From: Candidatus Sulfotelmatobacter sp.
GTDB lineage: Bacteria; Vulcanimicrobiota; Vulcanimicrobiia; Vulcanimicrobiales; Vulcanimicrobiaceae
Assembly (NCBI GenBank): GCA_035504415.1
Contig: DATJRY010000017.1
Span: 461,263-525,262, forward strand
Reading direction: 5' to 3'
Length of the DNA: 64,000 bases
Part shown: positions 11,679-30,534 of the stretch, piece by piece
How the letters are laid out: the number at the start of each line of letters is the position of its first letter
How positions within the stretch are numbered: position 1 is the stretch's first letter
Translations under genes and position numbers: made by a program
The notes under the pieces: model-generated
The model's database searches: none
What the model was told of the DNA's origin: nothing
The model's input: only the letters and a program-made list of their open reading frames with translations

Positions 11679-12271
11679 GGACGTTTCGATCGCTCGCGCG
11701 GCTGGGCGCGCTCGCGCTGCTGCTGCTGGCGGCGCCGCGCCCCGTGCTCGCCGCGCAGCAGGTCAGCGGCGACTGGAGCGTTCACGAGCGGCCCGGCCCG
11801 CCGGCGCGCCTCGCGCTGCGCCTGGATACCGACGACGCCGACTTCTCGAGCGATCGCTACGCGCCGGCCGATCTGGGCCTTTCGCTGCACGAGCTCGACG
11901 CGCCGGGGCATCACGTCACCTTCACCATCAACCGCGACGCCGGACGCTTCGCCTGCGACGGCTGGGTCGGCGGGGGCTCCGGCGCCGGGACGTTCACGTT
12001 CACGCCGAACCCGGGGTACCTGGACGCGTTGCGGCAACGCGGACTCGCGCCGCCGAGCGACGAGCGGCTGTTCAGCGCGGCGAGCCTCGACCTTTCGCTC
12101 GCCTACGTCGACGCGATGCGCGCGGCGCTGCCGGCGGTCGACTTTCACGACCTGATCACGCTGCGCGCGATGCGGATCGACACCGACTACATTCGTCTCG
12201 CCGAAGCGCACGGTTTCCACAACCTGAGCGCCGCAGAGTTGATCCGGGCGCGCGCGCTGCGCATCTTCTAG
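11675..12271 (+). CDS. Secreted protein carrying about 3 copies of the same repeat as the M56 C-terminus
   Basis: Signal peptide; repeats PGYLDALRQRGL / LAYVDAMRAAL / TDYIRLAEAHGFHNLS. GTGA overlap with M56. Confidence 0.85.
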   Translation: MRTFRSLARLGALALLLLAAPRPVLAAQQVSGDWSVHERPGPPARLALRLDTDDADFSSDRYAPADLGLSLHELDAPGHHVTFTINRDAGRFACDGWVGGGSGAGTFTFTPNPGYLDALRQRGLAPPSDERLFSAASLDLSLAYVDAMRAALPAVDFHDLITLRAMRIDTDYIRLAEAHGFHNLSAAELIRARALRIF

Positions 12272-12311
12272 GACCAGGTTTCTCCGGCGCCGAGCCGGTG
12301 CACAAGGGAGC

Positions 12312-15204: not shown

Positions 15205-15316
15205 CGCAGAGGACCTCTCGTCGGCGAATCGTGCGGTCCCTGCGCACCGCCGTAGGAGCTCGCCGACGCCGCACCAAAGGGCGCCCGCGACTCCTCAGCT
15301 CCGTTCGGAGGCCGGC

Positions 15317-15952
15317 GTGCGTTTCCAATCCTTCGGTGCGGTGTTCTTCCTCGCGCTCGCCGTCGGCTGTTCCGGCGGCGGCTCGGGGACACCGGCCGCG
15401 CCGTCCGCGCCGTCGGGATCGCAGTCGGCTCCGAGCGCGACCGCGACGCCGAGCGCGACACCGTCGGCGCGACCGAGCGCGTCGCCGACGCCGACGGCAT
15501 CCCCGACGCCGACCGCCGCGCCGTCATCCACCCCCGGCTCGACGCCGTTCGCCTGCAACGACGCGCAGTTCCTGACCGATCAGAGCGAGTTCGGCGCGGG
15601 CACGCTCAGCGGCGATCAGCTGGTCGACGTGTGCGGCAACGTCACCTCCGTGCTGGCCGAGCAAGACACCAGCAGCGGTCACCACGGCTACTTCTACGTC
15701 ACGATGCCGTCGGGGTATCAGATCGAGATCGTCTCGAACCTCGATGCGATGGCCGAGGCGTCGACCGATCAGCCGCCGGCGTGGCCGTGGGTCGCGACCG
15801 GCCAGTACGTCTACGTGCAGGGCCGGTACTACTACGACAACGCGTCGAGCCAGGGGATCGACTGGACCGAAGACGACACCGGTTCGTGGCCGTACGTCGG
15901 CTGGGTCGCGGTATGCGACGCGAACGGCAACAACTGCGTGAAGTACTGGTAG
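15317..15952 (+). CDS. Lipoprotein with Ser/Pro/Thr linker and DUF3465-like domain
   Basis: Lipobox LAVGC; C-terminal 'G.V..VL....SSGHH..F...P.G..I.I..NLD...G.Y.Y....IDWT' resembles DUF3465. Confidence 0.65.
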   Translation: MRFQSFGAVFFLALAVGCSGGGSGTPAAPSAPSGSQSAPSATATPSATPSARPSASPTPTASPTPTAAPSSTPGSTPFACNDAQFLTDQSEFGAGTLSGDQLVDVCGNVTSVLAEQDTSSGHHGYFYVTMPSGYQIEIVSNLDAMAEASTDQPPAWPWVATGQYVYVQGRYYYDNASSQGIDWTEDDTGSWPYVGWVAVCDANGNNCVKYW

Positions 15953-15964
15953 CGGCGCGGAATC

Positions 15965-17020
15965 TCAGCGCAGGGCGGCCACGATCGCGTCGCCCATCGC
16001 GCTCGTCGTGGCGGTGCCGCCCAGATCCGGCGTGAGCGTCGTTCGCGCGGTCATCACCGCCTCGACCGCGTCGGCGATGCGCTGCGCGGCGTCGCTCGCC
16101 GCGGCGTCGCCGTGCTTGCGGCCCAGCCACGCCAGCAGCATTTGGCCGGAGACGATCATGGCGTAGGGGTTGGCGACGTTGCGGCCTGCGATGTCGGGCG
16201 CCGAGCCGTGCGTCGCTTGCGCCATCGCCTTGTGCGGCCCGGCCGAGAGGCCCGGCGCCAAACCCAATCCGCCGACCAGGCCGGCCGCCTCGTCGGAGAG
16301 GATGTCGCCGAACATGTTGGTGGTGACGACGACGTCGTACCGCTGCGGCGTCATCACCAGGCGCATCGCGAAGGTGTCGACGATCGCCTCGTCGAGCATG
16401 ACGTCGGGAAACTCCCGGCCGACGCGCTTGACCTCCTCGACGAACATCCCGCAGCCGAGCTTGAAGACGGTGTCCTTGTGAACGACGGTGAGGTGCTTGC
16501 CCCGCGTGCGCGCCAGCTCGAACGCCTCGCGCGCGACCTTGGCCGAGCCATTGCGGGTGATGACGCGCACCGAGATGGTGACGTCGTGCGTGGGCCGGAA
16601 CTCGCCGCTGCCGGCCACGACGTTGCGGTCGGGTTGAAAGCCTTCGTTGTTCTCGCGCACGATCACCAGGTCGACGTCCTGGTGGACGGACGGGATGCCG
16701 GGATACGACTTGACCGGCCGGATGTTGGCGAACAGGTCGAAGTGCTTGCGCAAGATCGGGTGCGGGTTGGGCGCTTCGGCGACCTTCGGATAGGCCATGT
16801 GCCCGATCGGGCCCAGCACCCAGCCGTCGAGCTGCGCGAGTCGCTCGAGCGTATCGGCCGGCATCGTCGTGCCGAGCGTCTCGTACGCCCGGCGGCCGAT
16901 CGGAACGTCTTGCCATGCGATCTGCAAGCCGCTCAGCCGCGCCGCGGCCCGCATCACCTTGACGGTCTCGGGCACGACCTCGTGTCCGATGTCGTCGCCT
17001 TCGAGGACACCGATCTTCAT
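15965..17020 (-). CDS. Isocitrate/isopropylmalate/tartrate dehydrogenase family protein
   Basis: GDDIGHEV, IVRENNEG, NMFGDILSDEAAGLVGGLG and HGSAPDIAG motifs. Confidence 0.92.
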   Translation of the reverse strand: MKIGVLEGDDIGHEVVPETVKVMRAAARLSGLQIAWQDVPIGRRAYETLGTTMPADTLERLAQLDGWVLGPIGHMAYPKVAEAPNPHPILRKHFDLFANIRPVKSYPGIPSVHQDVDLVIVRENNEGFQPDRNVVAGSGEFRPTHDVTISVRVITRNGSAKVAREAFELARTRGKHLTVVHKDTVFKLGCGMFVEEVKRVGREFPDVMLDEAIVDTFAMRLVMTPQRYDVVVTTNMFGDILSDEAAGLVGGLGLAPGLSAGPHKAMAQATHGSAPDIAGRNVANPYAMIVSGQMLLAWLGRKHGDAAASDAAQRIADAVEAVMTARTTLTPDLGGTATTSAMGDAIVAALR

Positions 17021-17045
17021 GTCGCGTTTCCCCTCCGCGGGAGGT

Positions 17046-18437
17046 TCAGGGCGAGAGCGCTTCGAGGGCGCGGCCGTTGGTGACCGGGCCGAAGACGCCG
17101 ATACCGATGATGATGGCCAGCATCGCCGCGTCGATCATGGTGAAGACGCCGACCGTGCCGTACGCGGCCAACAGATTCCCGACCCAGTAGCCGACGAAGA
17201 TCGAGCTGATCCGGCTCCACGAGAAGGTGAAGCCGATCGCGCGAGCGCGGATGCGGGTCGGGAACAGCTCGGCCGCGTAGGGGTGAAAGACGCTGATCAT
17301 CCAGTTGTTGCCGAGCGCGATCAAGCCGCCGCAGACCAGGATCAGCGGCACGTTCCGCGCCCCGGCGAAGATCGTCCCGGCGACGCCGATGAGGATCGCG
17401 GTCAGCACCAGCTGCCACTTGCGCTCGACGCGTTCGGCGAAGTAGCTGCCGACCAGCGCGCCGACCGGTGCCAGCAGCACGATGATCGCCGTGTACGTCA
17501 GCGTGTGGATGATCGGGAAGCCCTGTTTGGTCAAGAGCACCGGCACGAACGAGGTGAAGCCGAAGACCGCAATCGTCTGGCAGAACTGGAACACCGAGAT
17601 CATCAGCGTGCGCGGCAGGTAGAAGCGGCTGAACATCTCTTGCCAATGACCTTGCTGCATCCCCAGCTCCGGCGAGCTCGGATCGGGCGGCGGCAGCGAA
17701 CCGCCGCGTTCGGCGATCACGCCCTGCTCGATGCGGGTGACGACGGCGTCGGCCTCGGCGGCACGCCCATGCGCCTCGAGCCAGCGCGGCGATTCCGGCA
17801 GCCCGCGCTGGACGAAGAAGACGACGATTCCGCTGAGCGCGCCGATCAGCACCACCCAGCGCCAGCCTGAGAACCCGAGCGGGTCGTGTGGCACGAGCCA
17901 GGCGGCCAGGAACGCGGCGACCGGGATCGCCGAGAGCACGAAGACGAACGAGGTCGTCATGTACTTGCCGCGTAGGCTGCGCGGCGTCAGCTCGGCCATG
18001 TAGCTGTCGTTGTTCACCAGCTGCATGCCGACCGCGAAGCCCGCGATCAGCCGCGCGGTGTCGATGAGGAGCGGGTCGCTCAGGAACACGATCGCGAGCT
18101 GCGCGAGCGAGTAGACGACCATCGAGGAGACGAAGACGGCGCGCCGGCCGACGCGGTCGGAGACGAACCCGAATACCGCGGTGCTCAGGAACATCCCCAC
18201 GAAGAACGAGGCCAGGAAGCTGGCGAAGCTGTGGTAGTCGAACAGCCCCTTGTTCTCGATGGTGTAGATTCCCGAGCGCACGAAGCCGGGGGCGATGAAG
18301 CCCGGCATGAACAGCTCGTAGAACTCGAACCAGCCGCCGCTCGCGATGCGAGCGATGACGCCGAGCAGATAGCGCGAGGGCGGCAGCCGATCGATGCGCC
18401 CCAGCACGGAGACGCGCGGCGCGGCCGCGGCGGTCAA
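17046..18437 (-). CDS. MFS transporter (aromatic acid/sugar porter-like)
   Basis: SDRVGRR motif A, ELTPRSLRG, ELFPTRIRARA, about 12 TM. Start inferred at TTG 18437 overlapping the PrpD-family stop. Confidence 0.9.
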   Translation of the reverse strand: MTAAAAPRVSVLGRIDRLPPSRYLLGVIARIASGGWFEFYELFMPGFIAPGFVRSGIYTIENKGLFDYHSFASFLASFFVGMFLSTAVFGFVSDRVGRRAVFVSSMVVYSLAQLAIVFLSDPLLIDTARLIAGFAVGMQLVNNDSYMAELTPRSLRGKYMTTSFVFVLSAIPVAAFLAAWLVPHDPLGFSGWRWVVLIGALSGIVVFFVQRGLPESPRWLEAHGRAAEADAVVTRIEQGVIAERGGSLPPPDPSSPELGMQQGHWQEMFSRFYLPRTLMISVFQFCQTIAVFGFTSFVPVLLTKQGFPIIHTLTYTAIIVLLAPVGALVGSYFAERVERKWQLVLTAILIGVAGTIFAGARNVPLILVCGGLIALGNNWMISVFHPYAAELFPTRIRARAIGFTFSWSRISSIFVGYWVGNLLAAYGTVGVFTMIDAAMLAIIIGIGVFGPVTNGRALEALSP

Positions 18438-19819
18438 CGCGTCACCGCCATGGCGGCGTGTCCGTTGGCCACCGGTGCCTCGCGCCGCGCGGCCTGCGCG
18501 AGCTGGGCGACGTCGCCGAGCCCGGCGACGTCCCAGCAGAGCGCGAGCACGCGCCGCGCTTGTTCCGGGCCGAGAATCGGATCGGCCAGGCCGTGGAACT
18601 TCGCCTCGAGGTCGGCATCGGTCATCGGGCGTGCCAGCGAGCCGATCGCGTGCTCGACGTGCAGCTCGTACATGGTGCCGTCGGTGAGCGTGATCGCGAC
18701 GTGGGCTTGGTCCGCGGCCAGCGCCGGATCGATCTCCGCGCGGATGCGATCGCGCAGCGCGACGACCGCCGGATCGGCGACCACCGCGTCGGAGAACTGC
18801 GGCTCGCCGGCGGCACCGGCGATCAGCGCGACGGCGGCCGCGTGATAGACGCTGAACTTCCCTTCGAGCCCCGTCTGCGGCGTTTTCTTGCCGGTCAGCT
18901 CGAGCACCAGCGGGTGCACGCGCAGCGCGACCGACGCGATGTCGCCGGGCACGAGCTGCTCGGCGTTGCGCAACTGGATGCAGCCGTCGATGGTGGGGTG
19001 GATGACGATGCCGCACGCGAACGGCTTGTAGGTATTCGCCAACAGCTCGTAGCGCTCGCCGAGTCCCTGCGTGATCTCGTCGTAGTCGCGCGCCACGCTG
19101 AGCACGTTGGCCCAGCCGCGCGGCGCTTCGATCGCCTGCTCCGAGCAGGTGAAACCGCGCTCCGCGAGGAGCGCCGCGGCCAGACCGTTCTGCGCGGAGC
19201 GGCCGGGATGGAAGCTCTTGGTCATCGTGCCGAACATCTCGCGCAGGCCGACCGGCTGCGTCGCCGCCAGCCCGAGCGCCCACGCCATGTGCTGTTCGTC
19301 CAATCCGAGGACCTTGCCGATCGCCGCGGCGGCGCCGAAGACACCGGTCGTCCCGGTGATGTGCCAGCCGACGTCGTAGTGCTCCGGGTAGACGGCGTTG
19401 CCGATCCGGCACTCGACCTCGACCCCGAGCACGAACGCGTTGACGAAGTCGGTGCCCCTCATCGGCCGCTGCTCCGCCCAGGCCAGGAGCGCGCTCGCGA
19501 CCGGGCCGGCGGGGTGGATGACCGTACGCAAGTGCGTGTCGTCGAAGTCGAACACGTGCGAGCTGATGCCGTTCATCAGCGCCGCGTGGAGCGGGTCGAG
19601 CCGTTCGGAACGCCCGAGGACGCTCGCGGTCGCCGGCCCCGAGAACGGTCCGAGCGCGGCGATCGCGACGTCCAGCGTCTCGTGGTGCGACCCGCCGATC
19701 GCACAGCCGGCCCAGTTGACGACGGCACGGGCGGCTTCTTTGCGGACCGGCGCGGGCAGCGCGTCGGGGCGCGCCTCGACGACGTAGCGGGCCAGCGTGC
19801 GCGTCACTCCACTCGACAT
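18434..19819 (-). CDS. MmgE/PrpD family protein
   Basis: NGISSHVFDFDDTH, HPAGPV, GWHITGT, TKSFHPG, YKPFACG, GKFS. Start MSSGVT at 19819. Confidence 0.92.
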   Translation of the reverse strand: MSSGVTRTLARYVVEARPDALPAPVRKEAARAVVNWAGCAIGGSHHETLDVAIAALGPFSGPATASVLGRSERLDPLHAALMNGISSHVFDFDDTHLRTVIHPAGPVASALLAWAEQRPMRGTDFVNAFVLGVEVECRIGNAVYPEHYDVGWHITGTTGVFGAAAAIGKVLGLDEQHMAWALGLAATQPVGLREMFGTMTKSFHPGRSAQNGLAAALLAERGFTCSEQAIEAPRGWANVLSVARDYDEITQGLGERYELLANTYKPFACGIVIHPTIDGCIQLRNAEQLVPGDIASVALRVHPLVLELTGKKTPQTGLEGKFSVYHAAAVALIAGAAGEPQFSDAVVADPAVVALRDRIRAEIDPALAADQAHVAITLTDGTMYELHVEHAIGSLARPMTDADLEAKFHGLADPILGPEQARRVLALCWDVAGLGDVAQLAQAARREAPVANGHAAMAVTR

Positions 19820-19908
19820 GGCGCGGTCTACGGTCACGGCGCCAAGGCGACCTTCCACGCCGTTCCGGTCAGCGGAACAGACCGGCGTCGAGCTGAAAGC
19901 GGGGGCCG

Positions 19909-20331
19909 ATGAAGCTCGCACCGGGACTGCGCGTCGGGCCGTCGGCGATTCACGGCCGCGGCTGCTTCGCCACCGCGCGTTTCGCGCGGCGGCGCAAGAT
20001 CGCCGAGTACACCGGCGAGCGGATCACCAACGCCGAGGCCGCGCGCCGCAGCGCCGGCCGGCCGGTGCTGCGCATCAGCGGCCTGGACCAGCGCTGGTCG
20101 ATCGACGGCGGCCGGGGCGGCAACGGCACCCATTACATCAACCACTCGTGCCGACCCAACGCGTTCTTGCAGACGTTCGGAAAACGACTGCTCGTCCTCG
20201 CGCTGCGCGACATCCGGCCCGGCGAGGAGATCACCGTCGACTACGTCGACACGTACCACTCCGACCGCAAGCGCTGCGGCTGCCGCGTTCCGGGCTGTCG
20301 CGGAACGATCAACAAGCCGAAGCGCGCGTAG
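19909..20331 (+). CDS. SET domain protein-lysine methyltransferase with post-SET Cys cluster
   Basis: SAIHGRGCFA, YINHSCRPN, GEEITVDY and CGCRVPGC motifs. Confidence 0.9.
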   Translation: MKLAPGLRVGPSAIHGRGCFATARFARRRKIAEYTGERITNAEAARRSAGRPVLRISGLDQRWSIDGGRGGNGTHYINHSCRPNAFLQTFGKRLLVLALRDIRPGEEITVDYVDTYHSDRKRCGCRVPGCRGTINKPKRA

Positions 20332-20349
20332 CCGGAAGCGGTCGCCGGA

Positions 20350-20688
20350 TCAGGTGCCCCCCGACTTGCAGATCAGACGCTGGATGCGCTCGAGCGTGAC
20401 CAGGCCGTCGGTCAAGACCTCGTCGATCGTGCTCAAGAACCCGCGCAGCCGTTCGATGTCGTCCGTCGCGACCTCGATCAGCATGGGCAGGTCCCCCGGC
20501 GCGTCGGGGTTCCAGTCGACCGAGAGCCGCCGATGGCTTCCGAAACCTTCGATCCCCCGAAAAACGGTCGCGCCACGGAAGCCGTGCTCGAGCAGCCGTT
20601 CGACCAACGCCTGCGTCGTCGAACGTTTGCCGGTGCGCGCGCTCTCCGAGACGTAGATCCGCATGAGCACGGCGTTGTGAGCGATCAT
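20350..20688 (-). CDS. DUF190 (PII-like, COG1993) protein
   Basis: MRIYVSE...GATVFRGIEGFGSH...DLPMLIEV...GLVTLE. Confidence 0.88.
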   Translation of the reverse strand: MIAHNAVLMRIYVSESARTGKRSTTQALVERLLEHGFRGATVFRGIEGFGSHRRLSVDWNPDAPGDLPMLIEVATDDIERLRGFLSTIDEVLTDGLVTLERIQRLICKSGGT

Positions 20689-20759: not shown

Positions 20760-21104
20760 ATGATCGCTGACCCGTCCTTCGTCCAGGGGCAGCTGCTGCG
20801 GATCTTCGTCGGCGAGGATGCCCACTACCATGGGCAGCCGCTCCACCTCGCGATCATCGAACTGCTCAAGCGCGAAGGGGTCGCCGGCGCCAGCGCCTTT
20901 CGGGGCATCGAAGGCTTCGGCTCGCATCACGAGATCCACCTCAACCGCGTCTTCGCGATCGGCGGGAAACTGCCGATCTTGATCGAGGTCGTCGACTCCG
21001 AGGAGCGCATCGCGGCGCTGCTGCCGCAGATCGAGCAGATGATCGACGAAGGCGCGGTGACGCTCGAGCGGGTCGAGTACCGGCGCTTTCTCAACGCGCG
21101 CTGA
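20760..21104 (+). CDS. DUF190 (PII-like, COG1993) protein, second paralog
   Basis: LLRIFVGE...GASAFRGIEGFGSH...KLPILIEVVDS...GAVTLERV. Confidence 0.9.
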   Translation: MIADPSFVQGQLLRIFVGEDAHYHGQPLHLAIIELLKREGVAGASAFRGIEGFGSHHEIHLNRVFAIGGKLPILIEVVDSEERIAALLPQIEQMIDEGAVTLERVEYRRFLNAR

Positions 21105-21110
21105 CACCGG

Positions 21111-21539
21111 TCAGCCCCGCAGCTCGTCGCTCACGACGAGGACCGGTGTTTGCGCCAGCCGGAGGACCGTGTCCGACACGCTGCCCAGGAGCTTGCGCTC
21201 GAGGCTGCCGCTGTGACGGCGCCCGACCACGATGAGGTCGGCGCCGATGCGGTGCGCCGCGTCGACGAGCGCGTGTGCTGCGTCGCCGTCCTCGATCAAT
21301 GCGAACGACGCGGTGACGCCGTGCCGCGCGGCACGCGCCACGGCTTCCTCGCCGTGCAGCCGATGTCCGCGCAGCTCCGCTTGACGCTCGCGTTCGTCCG
21401 GACCGCCGTGCGGGACCGGTTGGACGACGTCGACGATGGCGAGGCGGGCGTCGAACCGGCGCGCGACCTCCGCGGCGACGTCGACCGCGCGATCGGCGAT
21501 CGCGGTCTCGTCCCAACCGACCAGCACGTGCGAGAACAT
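21111..21539 (-). CDS. Universal stress protein, last gene of the riboswitch-led operon
   Basis: FSHVLVGWD...ADLIVVGRR...LLGSVSDTVL; starts 7 bp after the hyfB-like stop. Confidence 0.9.
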   Translation of the reverse strand: MFSHVLVGWDETAIADRAVDVAAEVARRFDARLAIVDVVQPVPHGGPDERERQAELRGHRLHGEEAVARAARHGVTASFALIEDGDAAHALVDAAHRIGADLIVVGRRHSGSLERKLLGSVSDTVLRLAQTPVLVVSDELRG

Positions 21540-21546: not shown

Positions 21547-23478
21547 CTACCAGTGGCGAACGGCCGGGAAAAGGAGCAGCATGACGATCGTGAACACCAG
21601 AATGTACGAGAGATAGAGCGCGATCACGCCCGACTGCGTCTCGCGCACGACGTCGGCGGCGCGCAAGAAGGCCGCGCCGATCCGGTTCCAGACGGCGACG
21701 CCGACCCAGGCGCGCGCGCGGACCGCGAGGTCGAGGATGACGCGGGTCGGGTTCGCGTAGCCGACGCCGGTGTATTGCGTCCACGGCCGGTACGCTTCGC
21801 CGGACGTCCACACCGGCACACGCGCGGAGCGCGGGCGGCGGATCAGCGCCACCAGCACGGCGAACGCCGCGGCGAAGCCGCCCACCACCAAGCCGAGTCC
21901 GAGCGGCCACGCCGACGAGAAGCCGGCGAAGGCCGGCTCGATGACCGGCGCGTCGGCCAGGATGCGCGCCGTCGCCGGGACGCCGGCCAAGCCGTCGATC
22001 GTGGGCCCCAGGGCGCTGATGAGCTGCGGCGCGAGGATGCCGACGCCGAGCGCACCGACCGCGCCCAGGACCAGCGCGGCGCCGCGAAAGGGATCGCGGC
22101 CGGCGCTCGCGCGTTCGGCCGCGGGCGTGCGCGGGGCCCCCAAGAAACCGATCCCGACGAGCTTCACGAACGCGACGATCGCGACGCCGGCGGCGATGCC
22201 GATCGTGGCGCCGCTCAACGCGAAGGTGATCGTCGCCGTGACGTTGCCGGTGCGGAACGCCTGCAGCAACGCTTCGAGCGTCATCCATTCGCCGGCGAAG
22301 CCGCCGCTCGGCGGCAGCGCGACGAGCGAGCCGGCTGCCGCCAGCACGACGACCGTCACCAGCGGGAGCGAACGCCACAGGCCGCCGAGCTCTTGGAACG
22401 AGGTCGTGCCGGCGTCGGCGCGCACTGCGGCGCAGGCCAGAAAGAGCGTGCACTTCGCGAGCGCATGCGCGGTCGCGTGCGCGAGCGCCGCGGCCACCCC
22501 GATGCCGCACAGGAACGGCAAGTCCAACGCGCGCGCCGCGATCGCGACGCCGAGCCCGACCAGCACGATCCCGGCGTTCTCGACGCTCGAGTAGGCCGCC
22601 AGCGTGCGCGCGTCGCGTTGCACCGCGGCCCAGGCGATGCCGAAGAACGCCGCCAGCGCGCCGCACGCCATCACCAGCAACCCCCACCACAGCGGCGTCG
22701 CTCCGCTCATCCCCAGGCCGACGCGGGCGATGCCGTAGAAGCCGACGTTGAGCGCGCCGCCCGCCATCATCGCGGCGACCAGCGAGGGTGCGGCGGTGTA
22801 GCCGCGCGCCATCCAGATCGGAAACGGCAAGATGCCGACCTTGGCGCCGAACGCGCACAGGAACAGCGCGAACGCGACACCGCGCACCAGCGGCGTCGCG
22901 CTCGCGCCGGCCGCCAAGAGCGTCGGCAATCCGAACGTGCCGTGGCCGACGACGACGAACGCGGCCAGCAGGCCCGCCGCGGCGCCGTGGGTGAGCAGCA
23001 GCGTGAGGTAGGCGGCGGACGGCCCGCGCGGGTCGGTGCCGGCGTAGGCGATGGCCTGATAGAAGGCCAGCGCCAGCAGCTCCCAGCCGAACACGAAGAG
23101 CAGCGCGTCGTCGGCCGTGCAGACGAGCAGCGAGGCGAACAGGACGCCGGCGGTGGCGCACGCGGCGGCGCGGCCGTCGCCGCGTTCGTCGGCGGTGCGC
23201 GCGCCCAGACCGTAGATGCCGACGACGACGCCGACCGCGCCGACGATGCCGAGGAACGCGGCGGCGAGCGGGTCGACGCGCAGCGCGAGATGCAAGGCGG
23301 GAGCCGCACGCCAACTGCGCGCGCCGTGCGCGAGCACGTCGCCCGCGGCGAGGAGTGCCGCGGCTCCGCCCAGCGCCGTGGCGAGAAAACCGGCCGCGCG
23401 GCCGACCGGCCCCTGCACCAGCGCCGCCAGCGCGAAGCCCGCGACGAGCAGCGCGAAGGCGATCAGCAGCGCGCTCAT
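21547..23478 (-). CDS. hyfB: HyfB-like (NuoL/M/N, Mrp-type) proton-translocating membrane subunit
   Basis: LRVDPLAAAF, FGWELL, GAKVGILPFPIW, AYSSVEN, AHALAKCTLF, LPPSGGFAGEW. Start 23478 by ATGA overlap. Confidence 0.88.
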   Translation of the reverse strand: MSALLIAFALLVAGFALAALVQGPVGRAAGFLATALGGAAALLAAGDVLAHGARSWRAAPALHLALRVDPLAAAFLGIVGAVGVVVGIYGLGARTADERGDGRAAACATAGVLFASLLVCTADDALLFVFGWELLALAFYQAIAYAGTDPRGPSAAYLTLLLTHGAAAGLLAAFVVVGHGTFGLPTLLAAGASATPLVRGVAFALFLCAFGAKVGILPFPIWMARGYTAAPSLVAAMMAGGALNVGFYGIARVGLGMSGATPLWWGLLVMACGALAAFFGIAWAAVQRDARTLAAYSSVENAGIVLVGLGVAIAARALDLPFLCGIGVAAALAHATAHALAKCTLFLACAAVRADAGTTSFQELGGLWRSLPLVTVVVLAAAGSLVALPPSGGFAGEWMTLEALLQAFRTGNVTATITFALSGATIGIAAGVAIVAFVKLVGIGFLGAPRTPAAERASAGRDPFRGAALVLGAVGALGVGILAPQLISALGPTIDGLAGVPATARILADAPVIEPAFAGFSSAWPLGLGLVVGGFAAAFAVLVALIRRPRSARVPVWTSGEAYRPWTQYTGVGYANPTRVILDLAVRARAWVGVAVWNRIGAAFLRAADVVRETQSGVIALYLSYILVFTIVMLLLFPAVRHW

Positions 23479-24224
23479 TCGGGTGCCTCGCGGGCGTGCG
23501 CGGCGACGCGGCCCAGTGCGACCCACAAGCCGTGCAGGATGCTCAGCGGCGCCGGCGGCGCGCCCGGGACCTTGACGTCGACCGGCACGACGCGGTCGAC
23601 CGGGCCGAGCACGTCCTGCGGAGCGTAGATGCTGCCCGAGCTGGCCGCACTGCCCACCGCGACCACCAGCTTGGGATCGGGCATCGCCTCGTACGTCCGG
23701 CGCAACGGCTCGGCCATGGCGCGGGTGACCACTCCGGTGACGACCAGCAGGTCGGCATGGCGCGGCGTCGCGGTGAGAAAGATCCCTAGCCGGTTGAGAT
23801 CGTAGAACGGGTTGAAGAGCGCTTGCACCTCCTGATCGCACGACGCGTCGCTGCCGCCGTCGACGTGCCGCACGAAGACCGAGCGCCCGAGCGACGAAGC
23901 GCGGCGCGCCAGGCGCGCCTGCGTGGTGGCGAGATCGGTCGGGATGAGCGAGAGTTCGTACTCGTTGCGCATCGCGTACGCATCGGGCGCGACACGCGCG
24001 CACCAGCCGCACTGGAAACAGCGTTGGCGCAGCACGACCGGCGGCGCGTGCGTGAGATCGATCGCGTTCGACAGACAAGCGCGTGCGCCGCGTTCGTAGG
24101 CCTCCGGCGGAGCGCCGGGCAGAACGGCGGCCGTTCCCCGCCAGTCGGCCGGCATCTCTTCGCGACCGCCGGGATAGCGGGTTGTCAGAATGCCGCGTGA
24201 GAGGCCGCGCAGAAACCAATTCAT
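23475..24224 (-). CDS. Fused ferredoxin-like (HyfH/HycF) plus NuoB-like small subunit (HyfI/HycG) with degenerate Fe-S ligands
   Basis: TTRYP, CFQCGWC, RHVDGGSDASC.QE, FYDLNRLGI..TATPRHADLLVVTG, DPKLVVAVG, DVKVPGAPP. Start 24224 by ATGA overlap. Confidence 0.9.
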   Translation of the reverse strand: MNWFLRGLSRGILTTRYPGGREEMPADWRGTAAVLPGAPPEAYERGARACLSNAIDLTHAPPVVLRQRCFQCGWCARVAPDAYAMRNEYELSLIPTDLATTQARLARRASSLGRSVFVRHVDGGSDASCDQEVQALFNPFYDLNRLGIFLTATPRHADLLVVTGVVTRAMAEPLRRTYEAMPDPKLVVAVGSAASSGSIYAPQDVLGPVDRVVPVDVKVPGAPPAPLSILHGLWVALGRVAAHAREAPE

Positions 24225-25615
24225 CGGTCGGTCTCCGCCACGATCAGCCCGAACGAGTGCTCGATGAACGAGAAGTCGGTGAAGATGTTGCCCGGTAATG
24301 CGGGGACGAACAACGGCCAGTTCTGGAACGACGCGCTGCGGATCGCGACCCGTCGCAGCTGTCCGTCGAAGCGGACCGCGTAGAGCAGCTCGCCCTGCGG
24401 TGATTCCACCCGCGCCATCCCCTCGGCGGCGCCGAACGACGGTACGGCGGCGCACGACGGACCGGGTGGCGCGGCGTCGAGCGCGTTGCGTACCAGCAAG
24501 AACGAGCGATGGATCTCTTCGCGTCGCACCTGCGCGCGGGCGAGCGCGTCGCCGCCGGCGGCCAACGCCTCGTCGGCCTCCTGCGACGTGAAGTTCCAGC
24601 CGTCGCGCGTTCGCGCGTCGCACGGCACGCCGCTGCCGCGTGCGACCGGGCCAACCGCGCCGAACGCGCCGATCGTCGCCGCGTCGAGGTGTCCGGTGCC
24701 GACCAGCCGGTCGATCAGCGAGGGCGTCGCGAAAAGCGCTTCGAGGGCGGCCAGCGTCTCGTGCTCGACCAGCTCGAGGTCGGTGCGGCAGGCCGCGTGC
24801 AGTGCCTCGAAGGCGTCGAATCGCGTCCCGCCGACGCACACGACGCCGCGACCGAAGCGGTTCTCGACCGCGCGCGCCAGCAGCCGGTGAACACGTTCCT
24901 TCGCGGCGTAGGTGTGCGCGGCACCGACGCTCAGCGAGCCGTCGTCGGCCAGTTTGGCCAGCGCGTCCAGGTGTTGGTGGATGCGTTCCAGCTCGCTCAG
25001 GATCGCGCGAGCGGCGCGCGCGCGCGGTGGGACCTCGACGTTCAGCGCTGCTTCGGCGGCGCGCGCAAAAGCCGTCGCGTGGCTGACCGCGGTGGCACCG
25101 GAAACGTGCTCCGCGACGAACGGCGCCTGGTCGAGCGGAACGCCCGCGAAACGCGCTTCCAGCCCACGGTACTTGAATCCGAACGAGGGCGTGACGTGCG
25201 CGAAGTCCTCGCCGCGCGTCTCGATGATCCAGCGGGCCGATTCGCCGATCCCCGAGCGCACGGGGCCGTACAAGACCGTCGACGCGTCAGGCGAGTCGAC
25301 GTGACGATAGCCTTCGGCGGCGGAAGGAATCAGCGGTGAGGGTTCGCCCGGCGCGGCATCGAGCTGCACGCCCCAGCGCTCGACCAGCTCGCGCTCGTGC
25401 CAGCCTGCCGCCGGCAGGCCGAGCGACTCGAGCGCGTTCTGCAGATAGCCGTCGAACGAGCGCAGCGCGCCGTTCTCGTCGACGACATAACGCACGAACG
25501 TGCCGTGCTCGTCGCGATCGGCGTAGCACCATACGAAGCGCGCGCCGCCGTCCACTCGTGCGCGCGCCGCCGCCCGCGCTTGCCGCGCCGTGGCATCGGC
25601 GCGTTGCACGATCAC
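24221..25615 (-). CDS. HyfG/HycE-like (NuoC+NuoD) large subunit lacking NiFe-binding motifs (Ehr type)
   Basis: WHEREL, YGPVRSGIGES, FKYRGLE, ELERIHQHL, GPVARGSG, ARAQVRREE, VESPQGE, RSASFQNW. RxCGxC and DPCxxC are absent. Start GTG 25615 by GTGA overlap. Confidence 0.9.
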   Translation of the reverse strand: MIVQRADATARQARAAARARVDGGARFVWCYADRDEHGTFVRYVVDENGALRSFDGYLQNALESLGLPAAGWHERELVERWGVQLDAAPGEPSPLIPSAAEGYRHVDSPDASTVLYGPVRSGIGESARWIIETRGEDFAHVTPSFGFKYRGLEARFAGVPLDQAPFVAEHVSGATAVSHATAFARAAEAALNVEVPPRARAARAILSELERIHQHLDALAKLADDGSLSVGAAHTYAAKERVHRLLARAVENRFGRGVVCVGGTRFDAFEALHAACRTDLELVEHETLAALEALFATPSLIDRLVGTGHLDAATIGAFGAVGPVARGSGVPCDARTRDGWNFTSQEADEALAAGGDALARAQVRREEIHRSFLLVRNALDAAPPGPSCAAVPSFGAAEGMARVESPQGELLYAVRFDGQLRRVAIRSASFQNWPLFVPALPGNIFTDFSFIEHSFGLIVAETDR

Positions 25616-27048
25616 GGCGAGCCCTCGAACAGCGCTTGCGCGCGGGCGATCAGCGCGACCAGCGGCTCCGGTACGACCAGGCCCAGGCCGATCACGACGA
25701 TCAGCCCGATGCACATCCCGGCGATCGGCACGAGCGCGCGCTCGCCGCGCCGCGTGTGCTCCGGCGGGTCGCCGGTCGTGGTCGCGGTGACCCAGCGCAG
25801 CAGTCCGGCGAACGCGATCGTCAGCAGGACGGCGACGATCGCGGCGAACCAGGGCGTGCGCCCGAAGCCGCCGGCGAGGATCATCAGCTCGCTGCGGAAG
25901 ACGCCGAACGGCGGCAAGCCGGCCAGCGAGAGACCCGCCAACGCGAACAGCACGCCCGAAACCGGCAGGCTGCGGATGCCGCCCCGGATGCCGGCGATCT
26001 CGCGCGTCTCGTAGCGCTCGGCGAGGCGTCCCGCGGAGAGGAAGGCCAGCGACTTGGAGGCGGCGTGGTTGATGGTGTGCAGCAGCGCGCCGGCGATCGC
26101 CAGCGGCGCGCCGAAGGCCAGCCCGACCGCGACGACGCCCATGTGCTCGATGCTCGAGTACGCCAGCATGCGTTTGATGTCGCGCTGCTGCAGCAAGAAA
26201 AAGGCCGCGAGCGCGAGCGAGATGATGCCGACGATGCCGAACAGCCGGTGGGTCATGGTGTCGCCGACGCTGGCATTGGTGATGCCGGCGAAGCGGAGGA
26301 TGACGTAGAGCGCGTCGGAGAGCAAGACGCCGGAGAGCATTGCGCTGGTCGGCGTGGGGCCCGCGCCGTGCGCGTCGGGCAGCCAGGTGTGCATCGGCGC
26401 GAGGCCCATCTTGGTGCCGAAGCCGATCAACGCCAACAAGAACGCCAGCCGCACGGCGTTCGGGTCGAGACCCTTGGCGGCGTGCACGTACGCGCTCCAC
26501 TCCGGCGCGTAGTGCGCGCCGAGCACGCTGGTGCCGGCGTCGTAGAGCACGACCACGCCGACCAGGCCGATCGCCAGACCGCAGGAGGCGATCAGGATGT
26601 ACTTCCAGGCCGCCTCCAACGCGCCGTCGGTGCCCTGCAGGCGAACGAGCAGCGCCGCCAGGATCGTGGTGACCTCCATCGCGACCCACAAGCCGGCCAT
26701 GTTCGAGAGCAGCGGCACGACGGCTTCGGCGCAGGCGAAGGCGTTGGTGAGCGCGAGGAATTGCCGCCGGTAGCGCTCGCCGGCCGCGTCGTCGCGGCTC
26801 TCGGCCGCGACGTACCAGGCCGCGTAGAGGCCGACCCCGCCGTACACCACCGCGACCGGGATCAGGAAGAGCCCGGAGAGCGCGTCGAGCGCCGGACGTC
26901 CGGCGCCGAACGCGTCGAGCAGCATCAGCGCGGCGGCGACCAGGCCGCCGGCGGCCGTCAGCGGCCGCCCGGCGCGCGAGGGAAGCAGCGCCGTCGCGAC
27001 GGCCAGCGCCCCGGGCACGATGACGACGAGCCACGAGAGCGTGCTCAT
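25612..27048 (-). CDS. hyfF: HyfF-like proton-translocating membrane subunit
   Basis: WVAMEVTT, LEAAWKY, GFGTKMGLAPMHTWLPDAH, KRMLAYSSIEH, NHAASKSLAF, GLPPFGVFRSE. Confidence 0.92.
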   Translation of the reverse strand: MSTLSWLVVIVPGALAVATALLPSRAGRPLTAAGGLVAAALMLLDAFGAGRPALDALSGLFLIPVAVVYGGVGLYAAWYVAAESRDDAAGERYRRQFLALTNAFACAEAVVPLLSNMAGLWVAMEVTTILAALLVRLQGTDGALEAAWKYILIASCGLAIGLVGVVVLYDAGTSVLGAHYAPEWSAYVHAAKGLDPNAVRLAFLLALIGFGTKMGLAPMHTWLPDAHGAGPTPTSAMLSGVLLSDALYVILRFAGITNASVGDTMTHRLFGIVGIISLALAAFFLLQQRDIKRMLAYSSIEHMGVVAVGLAFGAPLAIAGALLHTINHAASKSLAFLSAGRLAERYETREIAGIRGGIRSLPVSGVLFALAGLSLAGLPPFGVFRSELMILAGGFGRTPWFAAIVAVLLTIAFAGLLRWVTATTTGDPPEHTRRGERALVPIAGMCIGLIVVIGLGLVVPEPLVALIARAQALFEGSP

Positions 27049-27719
27049 CCGCGCAGCTCCGAGAGGCTGCGGATCGAAGCCGAGTTGCGGCGCGCGATCA
27101 TGATGCGGGCGAGCACCGCGAAGACGACGACCGCCACCAGGACGTCGATCAGCAGCAGGACGCCGACGACGAACGGCAGCCCCGGCGCGAGCGTCACCGT
27201 GCCGAAGAACAGCCCGTTTTCGAGGGTCAGGAACGCGATCAGCTGCGCGAGAGCATTCGGCCGCAGTATGGCGAGCAGGAAGCCGATGAAGACGATCGCC
27301 ATCGTCGCGGCCAGGTCCGCGCGCGGCAGCAGCGCGCCGAACGGCAGCGGCAGGCGCGCGGCGGTCAGCAGCGCGAGGGCGGTCAACGCGGCGGCCAGCA
27401 GGATCGAGAGCGTGACGTTGACGTGAATCGGCAGCTCGATGCGCACCGCGATCGAACGCGCCAAGCCGCGCATGTATGCCGGCAGGACGACGACCTTGAA
27501 GACCAGCGTGAGGACGGCCAGCACGATCAGGTCCCAGCCGTGCTCTTCGATGCCGACGATGAGCGCGACCGCCGCGACGAACAGCGATTGCACCGCGTAG
27601 AGCGAGATCAGCTCGCCGAGGATGACCGAGCGGAACATGGCCAGTTGGGTCAGGATGAGCGCGACGACGATCGTGCCCGCGAGCGCGTCGGCCGCGGTGA
27701 GCGGGTGGGGCGTCATCAT
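27045..27719 (-). CDS. hyfE: HyfE-like membrane subunit
   Basis: YAVQS, FKVVVLP, QLIAFLTLENGLFF, LLIDV; overlaps both neighbours. Confidence 0.88.
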   Translation of the reverse strand: MMTPHPLTAADALAGTIVVALILTQLAMFRSVILGELISLYAVQSLFVAAVALIVGIEEHGWDLIVLAVLTLVFKVVVLPAYMRGLARSIAVRIELPIHVNVTLSILLAAALTALALLTAARLPLPFGALLPRADLAATMAIVFIGFLLAILRPNALAQLIAFLTLENGLFFGTVTLAPGLPFVVGVLLLIDVLVAVVVFAVLARIMIARRNSASIRSLSELRG

Positions 27720-28672
27720 CCCACCCGCGCCGCCCAGGTGACGACGGCCAGCACCGCCAGCAGCAGGCCGGTCGCGATGAACTCGGTGATCTTGTAGAGG
27801 CGCAGCTTAGCGAACGACGTGTCGATGACGACGACGACCGCCCCGACGATCAGCATCTTGCCGAAGACGGTGACGAGCGCCAGCGCGACGGCGCCCACGC
27901 TGCCGGTCGCGGCCAGGCCGGGCGGCAAGAAGAGCACGTTGCAGAAGATCGTGTAGAGCACGAACTGCTTCATCGAGGCGCCCCACTTGAACAGGCCCAT
28001 CTCGGGGCCGGCGTGCTCGAACAGCCGCGCGTCGTCGATCATGCCGAACTCGATCGTCGCGCTCGAGCTTTCGATCGGGATGCGGCCCGTGTCGACCAGG
28101 AGCATCAAGAAGAAGGCCGCCATCGCGAACAGGTGCGCCGGGCGCACGACCGCCGCGACCGAGTGGCTGAGCAGCGCGTTCATCGCGTACGGGAGGTCGG
28201 TTCCGGTGATGAACGCGACCGAGAAGAAGACGAAGATCAGCGTCGGCTCGACCAGGATGCCGACCATCGTCGCGCGGCTGGCGCCGATCGAGGTGTACTG
28301 CGAGCCGCCGTCGAGAGCGGCGAGCGCGGTGACGAAGCCCGCCAGCGCGAGGACGAACGCGCCGCCGAGGATGTCGCCATAGGTGGCGCCGGGCAACGGA
28401 TACGTCGTCAGGACCGGGATCAGCGTCGCGACGGTCGCGTAGCAGCCGCATGCCACGTAGGGCGCGATGCGAAAGACGGGCGAGGCGACGTCGGGCGTGA
28501 CGCGCTGCTTGCGCAGCAGCTTCACGATGTCGCGATAGACCTGCCAGATCGACGGCCCGCGTTTGCCCTGCACGATCGCGGAGGCGCGGGCGATGAGTCC
28601 GGTGAGCAGCGGAGAGACGAACAGCGTCGCTCCGACCTGACACGCCTGGACGGCCAAGGGCGTCAAGGTCAC
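27716..28672 (-). CDS. hyfC: HyfC/HycD-like (NuoH family) membrane subunit, first gene after the riboswitch
   Basis: GKRGPSIWQVYRDIVKLLRK, GASR...LVEP, DTGRIPIE, AKLRL. Confidence 0.9.
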   Translation of the reverse strand: MTLTPLAVQACQVGATLFVSPLLTGLIARASAIVQGKRGPSIWQVYRDIVKLLRKQRVTPDVASPVFRIAPYVACGCYATVATLIPVLTTYPLPGATYGDILGGAFVLALAGFVTALAALDGGSQYTSIGASRATMVGILVEPTLIFVFFSVAFITGTDLPYAMNALLSHSVAAVVRPAHLFAMAAFFLMLLVDTGRIPIESSSATIEFGMIDDARLFEHAGPEMGLFKWGASMKQFVLYTIFCNVLFLPPGLAATGSVGAVALALVTVFGKMLIVGAVVVVIDTSFAKLRLYKITEFIATGLLLAVLAVVTWAARVG

Positions 28673-28742
28673 CGTTGCCTACCCCGGGAATCACCATTGC
28701 GCAGCACTGAACTTCCTCCGACGCGTCGAGTGGAGACGGGTC

Positions 28743-28804
28743 GTAGGAGTCATTGGCCACGCGGGCGGTTTGCGGCGACTGCCGACGGGCGGACCCCACC
28801 GCCC
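28743..28804 (-). ncRNA. Fluoride riboswitch (crcB RNA motif)
   Basis: Minus strand reads GGGCGG-UGGGGU-CCGCCC...AAACC-GCC-CGCGU-GGC-CAAUGACUCCUAC. P1 is 6 bp, P2 is present, and the pseudoknot GGGGU/ACUCC can form. Matches the GGCGAUGGNGUUCGCC...AAAC...UAAUGACNCCUAC consensus with a compensatory A-U to G-C change. Confidence 0.87.
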
Positions 28805-28854
28805 GGGGACGTTGCGACTCGGGTTCGGCCAGAGCCCGGAGGCGGCCTTCCGCG

Positions 28855-30534
28855 TTACGCGAGCGCCGGGGCAGCGGGTTCGACGCGGTCGCGGCCGCCG
28901 TGCTTGGCGGCGTACAGCGCCGCGTCGGCGCGTTCGAGCAGCGCTTCACCGGGCTCGTCACCCAGCGCGCAGGCGGCGCCGATGCTGACCGTCAGCACGC
29001 CGTCCACCCCGTCGGCGTGCGGGATCGCCTTCGCCCGAACCGCACGGCGGACGCGTTCGCCGAGTGCCACGGCGCCCTCGATGTCGGTCCCCGGCAAGAG
29101 CGCGACGAACTCTTCGCCGCCGAAGCGCGCGGCGCAATCGACCGCACGCAGCGCTCCGCCGAACGCGGTTGCCACCGCGCTCAGCGCTTGGTCGCCGGCG
29201 AGGTGTCCGTAGCGGTCGTTGTAGCTCTTGAACTTGTCGACGTCGAGGACCAGCACGGAATACGGAGCGTGCGTGCGCTGCGCGTGCGCGCGTTCCTCGG
29301 CCATCGCACGCTCCAGGCCGCGGCGGTTCGTCAGCCGGGTCAAGGGATCGAAGAACGCGTCGTGCTCGAAGGTGCGCAGGCGCTCCGCCAGCGCGATCGA
29401 GAGGAGCAGCGCCTCCCAGGCGAAGCCGAGCGTCGGCGCGACGTGCAGCAGCGCCGTGTACTGCACCAGCAGGTTGATGCCCGCGCCCCCGATCACGTTG
29501 CCCAGCATCACGCCGACGACCGCCAACGCGTAGAGCACCGCTTCACGGTCGCCGCGCGACGCGGCGACGATCCCGCACAGCGCGAGCGGCGCGAGAACGA
29601 GCGCGGTGGTGACGATCTCCGCCCAATCCCAGACGCCTGCGCCGATCAGCAGCTCCGGGGCGACGACGAGCAGCACGTTCGTGAGCACGAAGAGCCCGAG
29701 CAGCGCGAGGATCAGCGCGTCGGTGCGCGGGAACGTCGAGCGCGTGCGCAGGAACGCGCGGCCGAAGACGACGGCGGAGCCGATCGCGAGCGCGTAGGTC
29801 GTGTTGTCGGCCAGATCGTAGTCGATCCCGACACCGGGCCACAGCCAGCGCCACGCGTCGCCGCTGAGCACGAGCACGTGGAGCGCCGCCGCGACGACGG
29901 CGGCGGCGTAGTAGGCGTACGTCGACCGTCGCAGGCGCAGCGCCAGCAGGACGTTGAGCACGCCGAAGGCGGCGACGAACCCGGCGGAGAGGAGCTGCAG
30001 TCCGCGCGTCCCCGCGCCTTCGACCAGCCAGCCGAACCACGCGCGCTCGCTCATCAGGCGGAAGACGGAGGCGTGCGCGAAGGACGAGCGGACGCGCAGA
30101 TAGATCGGCCGGCCGTCGAGCGCGTCGCGCGGCAGCGGGATCAAATTTTGGGCGTGCGGGAACGGCTTGTCGGCCGTCGGGACGTCGCCGCCGGTGTGCA
30201 CGGTCTCCACGCCGCCGTCGGCGCGCGGGACGAACAGCTCGGCGTCGAGCGTGTGCCAGGAGACGAGCAGATCGTAGGCGCCGGGCTCGCGCGGTCGGAT
30301 GCGCAGCCGAAACCAGGTGATCGCGGGATGCGCTCGCGTCGCCGTGTGGCGGTCGACGAGCGTGGGAGCCGAACGCCACGGCGCGTCGGGCGCGCGCACC
30401 TCGGCGAGCGTGAGGCGGCCGCCGTCGTCCGCGATCGCATCGGCGCGCGTCCAGAGATCGACGTCCGTATCGGCGGCGGGTCGCAGCGGAGCGACCACGG
30501 CTAGCACTAGCGCCGCCAGAACCGCCTGGTACAC
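28855..30534 (-). CDS. Diguanylate cyclase with 7TM-DISM extracellular and 7TM sensor domains
   Basis: Signal peptide, 'WFRLRI' DISM-ED, 7 TM segments, DPLTRLTNRR, DVDKFKSYNDRYGHLAGD, RAVD I-site, GGEEF. Confidence 0.92.
   Translation of the reverse strand: MYQAVLAALVLAVVAPLRPAADTDVDLWTRADAIADDGGRLTLAEVRAPDAPWRSAPTLVDRHTATRAHPAITWFRLRIRPREPGAYDLLVSWHTLDAELFVPRADGGVETVHTGGDVPTADKPFPHAQNLIPLPRDALDGRPIYLRVRSSFAHASVFRLMSERAWFGWLVEGAGTRGLQLLSAGFVAAFGVLNVLLALRLRRSTYAYYAAAVVAAALHVLVLSGDAWRWLWPGVGIDYDLADNTTYALAIGSAVVFGRAFLRTRSTFPRTDALILALLGLFVLTNVLLVVAPELLIGAGVWDWAEIVTTALVLAPLALCGIVAASRGDREAVLYALAVVGVMLGNVIGGAGINLLVQYTALLHVAPTLGFAWEALLLSIALAERLRTFEHDAFFDPLTRLTNRRGLERAMAEERAHAQRTHAPYSVLVLDVDKFKSYNDRYGHLAGDQALSAVATAFGGALRAVDCAARFGGEEFVALLPGTDIEGAVALGERVRRAVRAKAIPHADGVDGVLTVSIGAACALGDEPGEALLERADAALYAAKHGGRDRVEPAAPALA

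Follow-up and report, generated by a model that had tools for sequence, protein, structure and literature searches.

Complexes of the Ehr type, reportedly named in Geobacter sulfurreducens and said to have been surveyed by Marreiros et al. in 2013, combine NuoH-like, HyfE-like and Mrp-type antiporter-like subunits with a large and a small subunit, the large one without CxxC NiFe motifs. Published accounts agree that the NiFe ligands are absent and call the function of these complexes unknown (PMC6349859, PMC10284858, PMC7894505). A second described class is defined by its regulation: 'genes encoding formate hydrogen lyase' were listed among those downstream of the crcB motif (Weinberg et al. 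2010, PMC2864571), and a 2024 review counts formate hydrogen lyase among the enzymes most commonly associated with fluoride riboswitches and reads the association as a metabolic shift (PMC11139923); the same gene class is also credited to Baker et al. 2012, as cited in that review. Here we describe a six-gene operon in a 64,000-nucleotide stretch of DNA from Candidatus Sulfotelmatobacter sp. (assembly GCA_035504415.1, contig DATJRY010000017.1, positions 461,263 to 525,262; below, the window is this whole stretch), and in particular its small-subunit gene, gene S, in which three of the four Cys ligands of the proximal [4Fe-4S] cluster are replaced. The operon has the subunit set of Ehr complexes and their large subunit without CxxC motifs, whereas its small subunit has, in addition, lost the proximal ligands and is fused to a ferredoxin-like domain with the motif for one cluster, and the operon is preceded by a predicted fluoride riboswitch.

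With the crcB-linked class the window operon shares its regulatory association, and its family is evidently what the surveys listed as formate hydrogen lyase; there, however, the annotation was taken at face value, whereas the large subunits of the operons compared here have no NiFe ligands, so that the complexes are not hydrogenlyases, and some members of the family have apparently also lost most of the Fe-S chain. Ehr complexes and the riboswitch-linked 'formate hydrogen lyase' genes were both known, and what appears to be new is a riboswitch-linked clade without proximal ligands. In the literature that we searched, which included neither the first Ehr papers nor Baker et al. 2012, riboswitch-linked operons are nowhere called Ehr-type and no clade without proximal-cluster ligands is described among them, an earlier mention being possible. 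The operons that have been listed under this name since 2010-2012, among the commonest targets of the fluoride riboswitch, are Ehr-type and cannot be hydrogenases, and therefore their usual reading, a shift to fermentative metabolism, needs revisiting.

The proximal-cluster site of the small subunit

Gene S is a fusion of an N-terminal ferredoxin-like domain and a domain of the NuoB/HycG/MbhJ type:

23475 to 24224, minus strand: gene S, small subunit, 249 amino acids (Pfam Oxidored_q6 and Fer4_13, AlphaFold2, Foldseek)
23505 to 23879, minus strand: NuoB-type domain with the dismantled proximal-cluster site (alignment to solved structures)
23970 to 24089, minus strand: single-cluster ferredoxin motif, C50 (24075-24077), C69 (24018-24020), C72 (24009-24011) and C75 (24000-24002)

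The frame is uninterrupted between its ATG (24224) and its stop (23475). The ATG overlaps the stop of the large-subunit gene (ATGA), the stop overlaps the ATG of gene B in the same manner, and an independent gene call in a relative agrees in both length and start. Because the G+C content of the window is 68%, it contains many long spurious open reading frames (ORFs); one of 454 amino acids at 23475-24839 was rejected as a gene and considered an artefact of the high G+C. In the minus-strand translation of gene S, which includes the stretches VDGGSDASCDQEVQ, TATPRHADLLVVTG, PDPKLVVAVGSAASSGS and VKVPGAPPAP, the ligand motifs read GGSDASCDQE, VGSAASSG and VPGAPPAP, and the motifs flanking the ligand sites, TPRHAD and PDPKLVVAVG, are intact.

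The register of the ligand positions was fixed by residue-by-residue HMMER alignment to solved structures. By both sequence and fold the best matches are HycG/HycF of Escherichia coli formate hydrogenlyase (7z0s) and MbhJ/MbhN of Pyrococcus furiosus Mbh (6cfw). MbhJ (6cfw_J, E 1.6e-36) carries the motifs GSCNGCDIE, IGACPTGG and VPGCPPRP, and HycG (7z0s_G, E 1.4e-31) carries GGCNGCEIE, YGACGNSG and IPGCPPTP; opposite their four Cys, gene S has D126 (23847-23849), C129 (23838-23840), A193 (23646-23648) and A222 (23559-23561), so that only the second Cys is kept. HycG and MbhJ hold the proximal cluster with four Cys and have NiFe-bearing partners, against one of four and none of four, respectively, in the window. 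An earlier note, made from the letters of the window, had claimed that three of four Fe-S Cys were lost (as GSDASC, GSAA and PGAPP) from an unbroken ORF with intact flanking motifs, and had proposed an alignment to HycG-type proteins as a check; the alignment leads to the same codons, and the translation bears out the rest.

Membership of the family is clear, with Oxidored_q6 (PF01058) matching gene S at 84.3 bits against a cutoff of 27 (E 7.5e-24), whereas the four Cys that ligate the proximal/N2 [4Fe-4S] cluster in NuoB, HycG and MbhJ are not all present. The AlphaFold2 model, built with 111 homologs, reached a predicted local distance difference test score (pLDDT) of 91.5 and a predicted template modelling score of 0.87, and a Foldseek search with it returned HycG (7z0s_G) and MbhJ (6cfw_J) on top, at probability 1.00 and E about 1e-14, as well as NuoB/PSST chains of complex I. 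Sequencing error, which the earlier note had named as a possible refutation, is excluded by two metagenome runs: a 1712-nucleotide contig of the wetland run X1 (depth about 19) covers 23400-24275 and a contig of run X2 covers 23511-23762, both with 0 differences. The gene S protein was found identical on 2 contigs.

Gene S is under strong purifying selection. Compared with its syntenic ortholog in locus L081 (85% amino-acid identity), the ratio of nonsynonymous to synonymous substitution rates (dN/dS, Nei-Gojobori) is 0.114, the lowest among the six operon genes (H 0.118, F 0.197, E 0.228, L 0.283 and B 0.289). We then compared the ligand positions across the 120 best database proteins, which are 45-100% identical to gene S and come from Eremiobacterota/Vulcanimicrobiaceae/Baltobacteraceae, Dormibacterota-labelled genomes and Actinomycetes. 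Position 1 is Asp in 119 of the 120, far beyond chance. The other positions vary: position 2 is Glu in 62, Cys in 40, Val in 14 and Thr in 4; position 3 is Ala in 46, Ser in 37, Asp in 19, Thr in 17 and Cys in 1; and position 4 is Ala in 54, Ser in 25, Thr in 23, Asp in 13, Gly and Met in 2 each and Cys in 1. Cys at position 2 is confined to the nearer relatives of gene S (roughly 58% identity and above), and since the position is not conserved and Glu is the commoner residue, C129 is no meaningful remnant of the ligand set.

When homologs are grouped at 50% identity, 90 of the 150 nearest cluster representatives keep all four Cys (CCCC, with the residues written in the order of the positions) and about 40 are of the D-type, with D-E-D-S as their commonest pattern; the D-C-A-A of the window belongs to one sub-lineage of Eremiobacterota. 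When the NuoB domains of 80 genome loci were placed in a neighbour-joining tree, the D-type sequences came out as a single clade (17 of 17, with no intruder). This clade lies within Cys-keeping sequences that share its operon type, and it spans Eremiobacterota, Actinomycetes/Acidimicrobiia and at least one alphaproteobacterium. The proximal site was therefore dismantled once, long ago. Parsimony on this tree needs three changes if C129 was regained and four if it was retained, which slightly favours a regain without deciding the matter. Other Cys-poor patterns occur among the same 150 representatives, namely in P0225 and P0261 (NEGN/NEGD), P0234 (TCGN), P0172 (SAES), P0147 (ECED), P0237 (TDES) and P0222 (GCAD), and these NuoB-like small subunits may have lost the proximal cluster independently.

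These comparisons bear on several claims of the earlier note. It had proposed a dN/dS estimate, which came out as purifying selection, and had named Cys in all close homologs as the outcome that would speak against it, the opposite of what 119 of the 120 nearest homologs have at position 1. Of its interpretation, repurposing and not random decay stands, given the dN/dS of gene S and an old monophyletic clade that shares the substitutions. The idea of three independent substitutions in the gene has to be given up: the changes were inherited clade-wide, and D-E-D-S is the commonest pattern.

The N-terminal 100 residues of gene S form a ferredoxin-like domain, modelled with pLDDT above 95 and matched by Fer4_13 at E 1.8e-4 and 22.6 bits, under the Pfam cutoff of 24.5. 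This domain is the counterpart of the HycF/NuoI-type ferredoxin domain, here fused to the HycG-type domain, and it shows the C...CxxCxxC arrangement on a ferredoxin fold. In weak alignments to dicluster ferredoxins and FrhG, C50 corresponds to the fourth Cys of motif 1 (CxxCxxCxxxCP) and C69, C72 and C75 to the first three of motif 2 (CxxCxxC), whose fourth Cys is replaced by Ala. In ferredoxins with two [4Fe-4S] clusters, the fourth Cys of motif 1 and the first three of motif 2 bind one cluster together, and in NuoI/Nqo9 terms we take this cluster to be of the N6b type, adjoining N2. Because C50, C69, C72 and C75 are invariant in 116 of 116 full-length D-type relatives, one [4Fe-4S]-type site is very probably still present, and the gene S product is probably still an Fe-S protein. 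The suggestion of a non-redox scaffold had overlooked this domain. A canonical N2/proximal cluster, on the other hand, can hardly be bound, as gene S has one of its Cys left and most relatives have none.

A riboswitch-linked family of Ehr-type operons

Gene S is the fifth gene of an operon of the order H-E-F-L-S-B, which on the minus strand is preceded by a fluoride riboswitch and followed by a gene for a universal stress protein (Usp):

28737 to 28812, minus strand: predicted fluoride riboswitch aptamer RF01734 (Rfam cmscan 35.5 bits against a gathering threshold of 34, E 4e-06)
27716 to 28672, minus strand: gene H, NuoH/HycD-like membrane subunit, 318 amino acids (Pfam NADHdh PF00146, E 2.3e-30)
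27045 to 27719, minus strand: gene E, HyfE-like small membrane subunit, 224 amino acids (NF008556, 67.9 bits against a cutoff of 136)
25612 to 27048, minus strand: gene F, HyfF/NuoM/N-like antiporter-type subunit, 478 amino acids (Proton_antipo_M, E 4.2e-52)
24221 to 25612, minus strand: gene L, NuoC/D-HycE-like large subunit, 463 amino acids (Complex1_49kDa, E 5.6e-29)
21547 to 23478, minus strand: gene B, HyfB/NuoL-like antiporter-type subunit, 643 amino acids (Proton_antipo_M, E 8.3e-39)
21111 to 21539, minus strand: universal stress protein gene (Pfam Usp, E 7e-28)

Gene L has MbhL (6cfw_L) and HycE (7z0s_E) as its best PDB relatives and lacks both NiFe motifs. At the N-terminal motif it reads AEHVSGATAVSH where MbhL has AERMCGICSFSH and where L070 and L071, true hydrogenases included in the alignment, have ERV-GICGFAH; at the C-terminal motif it reads EHSFGLIVAETDR where L070 and L071 have DPCYSCTER. 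All NCBIfam Hyf/Hyc/Nuo matches of the operon proteins fall under their curated cutoffs, that of gene B to 'hydrogenase 4 subunit B', for instance, at 332.9 bits against 667. Gene E gave no Pfam match; its NCBIfam match, NF008556, is 'hydrogenase 4 membrane subunit', and its position is conserved in all related operons. Gene F, aligned to MbsH, NdhD and MbhH, keeps the Glu of transmembrane helix 5, the Lys of helices 7 and 8 and the Glu of helix 12, a set typical of proton-translocating antiporter-like subunits. The homologs of the large and small subunits, the NuoH-like and the Mrp-type antiporter-like subunits thus lie in one cluster and the NiFe ligands are absent, as in Ehr complexes; because the NiFe motifs are missing and the NCBIfam matches are below cutoff, we assign the operon to an Ehr-type complex and not to a hydrogenlyase. 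Neither formate dehydrogenase nor hyp maturation genes were found in the operon or its immediate neighbours, and the 64-kilobase window holds no second Ehr operon.

The predicted aptamer lies 64 nucleotides upstream of gene H on the same strand, that is, in the position of a 5' leader. A covariance model built in this analysis, R1, scores it at 46.5 bits, and its positional homologs reach 54 bits. A simple scan around the riboswitch found neither an intrinsic terminator nor a sigma-70 promoter. The expression platform may be translational. The leader between aptamer and start codon (28672-28737) contains a hairpin-like stretch that bears GGAGG (CGTCTCC...CGGAGG).

We surveyed 80 operon loci, taken from contigs with one genome per species, and found two gene orders: type A, H-E-F-L-S-B, with a long, ferredoxin-fused small subunit, and type B, B-H-E-F-L-S, with a short one. 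A riboswitch was counted on the same strand 7-250 nucleotides upstream of the first gene, combining Rfam matches with R1. By this count, in which the matches of L006, L028, L030 and L031 lie under the Rfam threshold and depend on R1 and position, riboswitches precede 13 of 13 Cys-less type-A operons (the window included), 32 of 33 Cys-keeping type-A operons and 0 of 18 type-B operons; the type-B loci are the other Ehr-type operons sampled, and unlike the window operon they keep CCCC. In the Acidobacteriota loci L028, L030 and L031 the E-values with R1 are 1e-4 to 0.014. Since R1 is biased to Eremiobacterota-type riboswitches (Paraburkholderia leaders score 13-18 bits and L035 is missed, whereas Rfam gives 47-51 bits there), counts on R1 alone would be too low.

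As Cys-less and Cys-keeping type-A operons both have it, the riboswitch marks the operon family and not the loss of the cysteines. The co-occurrence with fluoride riboswitches that the earlier note asked about for homologs of the D/A/A pattern is therefore real and not specific, and a riboswitch tied to that pattern in particular was rejected, because it follows the operon type regardless of whether the Cys are kept. Among the type-A carriers are cultured members of Paraburkholderia and Caballeronia (Rfam 48-51 bits), as well as Acidobacteriota, a metagenome-assembled genome of Desulfobaccales and a Thermoplasmata archaeon.

Within this one operon type the small subunits differ in their cluster ligands. 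Those of Paraburkholderia and Caballeronia have eight N-terminal Cys and CCCC, those of Acidobacteriota four N-terminal Cys and CCCD, and those of the D-type clade four N-terminal Cys without a proximal site, which would correspond to a series of three clusters in Paraburkholderia, two (one of them with an Asp ligand) in Acidobacteriota and one in the D-type clade. The CCCD pattern (PGDPP) may mean that Asp ligates the proximal cluster in these proteins and that they represent an intermediate step in the series. It occurs in L021, L022, L028, L030-L032, L034, L039, L045, L046, L048 and L052, where the small subunit lies at about 10000-10700 and has a one-cluster N-terminal domain. Such a natural series from three to two to one clusters under one regulator bears on the function of Ehr complexes in general, and its Paraburkholderia end can be cultured.

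In five loci (L004, L006, L053, L058 and L077) two type-A operons adjoin each other, one Cys-less and one CCCC. The pair in L004 lies at 5571-12651 and 13962-20634, and in L004 and L053, the two loci that allowed an assessment of both leaders, a separate riboswitch precedes each operon. The pairing suggests a division of labour rather than a replacement of one form by the other.

In some relatives the operon lies in a fluoride island. Locus L003 has separate riboswitches before a NUDIX gene, a metallophosphoesterase gene, the Ehr operon and DUF190-CrcB, and Paraburkholderia phenazinium has the Ehr operon grouped with a MutS-domain gene, a CLC gene and three to four riboswitches. Such islands in relatives carry three to four riboswitches per 20 kilobases, which control genes for NUDIX, a calcineurin-like phosphoesterase, DUF190-CrcB, CLC and a MutS-domain-V protein next to the Ehr operon; their coordinates are 4705-5375 (minus strand) and 13992-14208 in L003, 12838-14296 in L016 and about 2100-3900 in L015-L041.

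Possible functions of the complex

On the strength of gene content, regulation and ligand residues we lean, with modest confidence, towards a cofactor-poor evolved Ehr-type complex that is induced by fluoride and translocates ions without canonical electron transfer. The operon would be switched on by its riboswitch when fluoride rises. The electron path from the ferredoxin-like clusters through the proximal cluster to the large-subunit pocket would be cut, and L and S would be kept as a structural or coupling cap, serving assembly or conformational coupling, on a membrane arm that, with its key charged residues intact, would move H+ (or Na+). The remaining N-terminal cluster would be structural or regulatory. 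HF enters the cell at low pH and there releases H+ and F-, and the complex would counter the acidification and the ion imbalance, acting beside the fluoride exporters CrcB and CLC-F of the riboswitch-controlled islands in relatives. The carriers come mostly from acidic wetland and peat samples. The complex may work like the Mrp Na+/H+ antiporter, a redox-independent member of the superfamily with homologous antiporter-like subunits and the same Glu/Lys pattern; Mrp, however, is without NuoB-, NuoD- and NuoH-type subunits, whereas the window operon has them, strongly conserved. If its function is ordinary ion pumping, the outcome is a useful re-annotation.

Several points weigh against this proposal. 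The window riboswitch is barely over its Rfam threshold, and neither a fluoride exporter (CrcB or CLC-F) nor a second riboswitch was found in the 64-kilobase window. The loss of the cluster is read from the ligands, and a role in pumping ions under fluoride stress from the genes of the operon and their control. The weak point is that, with the electron path gone, the energy source of the pump is left unexplained. A passive antiporter, moreover, would not obviously need L and S, and yet S is the most constrained gene, which hints at a function of the peripheral module beyond what the proposal explains; a small subunit apparently stripped of its electron path and still so constrained raises the question of how far complex-I-like coupling depends on redox chemistry. 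Finally, Asp126 is nearly invariant, and together with the D-E-D-S pattern this hints at a specific site and not at a mere cavity filler.

The unexplained energy source and the constraint on S therefore leave room for a working site in the former cluster pocket, which could bind a hard cation (Mg2+, Ca2+ or Mn2+) or a metal-fluoride or act as a proton relay that prolongs the proton path of the membrane arm, ligand binding then gating or driving the complex. We regard this as possible if rather unlikely. It is consistent with the Asp at position 1 of nearly all homologs, with the commonest patterns (DEDS, DDDS, DVDD and DIDD), which put three O-donors at former Cys ligand places, with the lowest dN/dS of the operon and with control by fluoride, an ion whose biology runs via Mg2+ complexes. 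Carboxylates at the ligand positions also point to a site for cations or protons and away from one for anions. Beyond Asp126, however, the pattern is not conserved, and with two Ala and one Cys in gene S itself a four-ligand site cannot be a general feature; Cys-keeping paralogs stand under the same riboswitch, so fluoride control does not single out the site. In its strongest form, a machine of the complex-I/hydrogenase type without redox chemistry, in which binding of a hard cation, a metal-fluoride or protons in a pocket lined by the near-invariant Asp and by Glu, Asp or Ser drives or gates ion translocation as a device dedicated to fluoride stress, the idea is distinctly doubtful. If the carboxylate pocket does work as a site, it would amount to a new coupling principle, and such a ligand-coupled machine would be the first member of the complex I superfamily that is not coupled to redox with its peripheral arm still present.

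It is improbable that an Fe-S cluster still occupies the proximal site through Asp, Glu or Ser ligands and still passes electrons on to the large subunit. Asp is able to ligate [4Fe-4S] clusters, as in Pyrococcus furiosus ferredoxin, the CCCD proteins of Acidobacteriota make a plausible Asp-ligated cluster, and the retained N-terminal motif would be pointless as a dead end. The window, however, offers one Cys, one Asp and two Ala, most relatives have none of the four Cys, and we know of no [4Fe-4S] site built of carboxylates alone; the large subunit, moreover, is without a catalytic metal site to take the electrons.

That the operon encodes a genuine formate hydrogenlyase or group 4 [NiFe] hydrogenase, with the odd residues as tolerated variation, appears highly improbable. 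This reading has behind it the source annotations (such as 'Ni,Fe-hydrogenase III small subunit'), the subunit set, the best PDB matches, which are formate hydrogenlyase and Mbh, and the name 'formate hydrogen lyase' given to riboswitch-linked genes in the literature; it is countered by the absence from gene L of both NiFe Cys motifs, which L070 and L071 possess, by the missing proximal ligands and sub-cutoff NCBIfam matches, and by an operon in which neither formate dehydrogenase nor hyp maturation genes occur. A recently formed pseudogene or an error of assembly or sequencing, for which nothing speaks besides the loss of the canonical ligands, was rejected on the dN/dS of 0.114 and the identical sequence in two metagenome runs, and has next to no likelihood beside an intact, translationally coupled ORF, a confident fold prediction and the same pattern in over 100 homologs, with identities as low as 45%.

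Neighbouring genes in the window

The Usp gene, which follows gene B in L001-L006 as well, probably ends the transcript. Two divergent DUF190 genes (PII-like and usually associated with CrcB) follow closely downstream of the operon, at 20350-20688 on the minus strand and 20760-21104 on the plus strand. Directly upstream of the riboswitch is a 7TMR-DISM/GGDEF diguanylate cyclase gene (28855-30534, minus strand), and the syntenic relative L081 has a PAS-GGDEF gene at the equivalent place. Further upstream, genes of the xanthine dehydrogenase/CO dehydrogenase family (31258-34967, minus strand) encode molybdopterin-binding, FAD-binding and [2Fe-2S] subunits; the FAD-binding ORF seems to be split or to have its start mis-set (33468-33995 and 33934-34797). 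Two adjacent tRNA genes are found at 50730-50802 and 50808-50878 on the minus strand, with Rfam scores of 58.7 and 55.0 bits.

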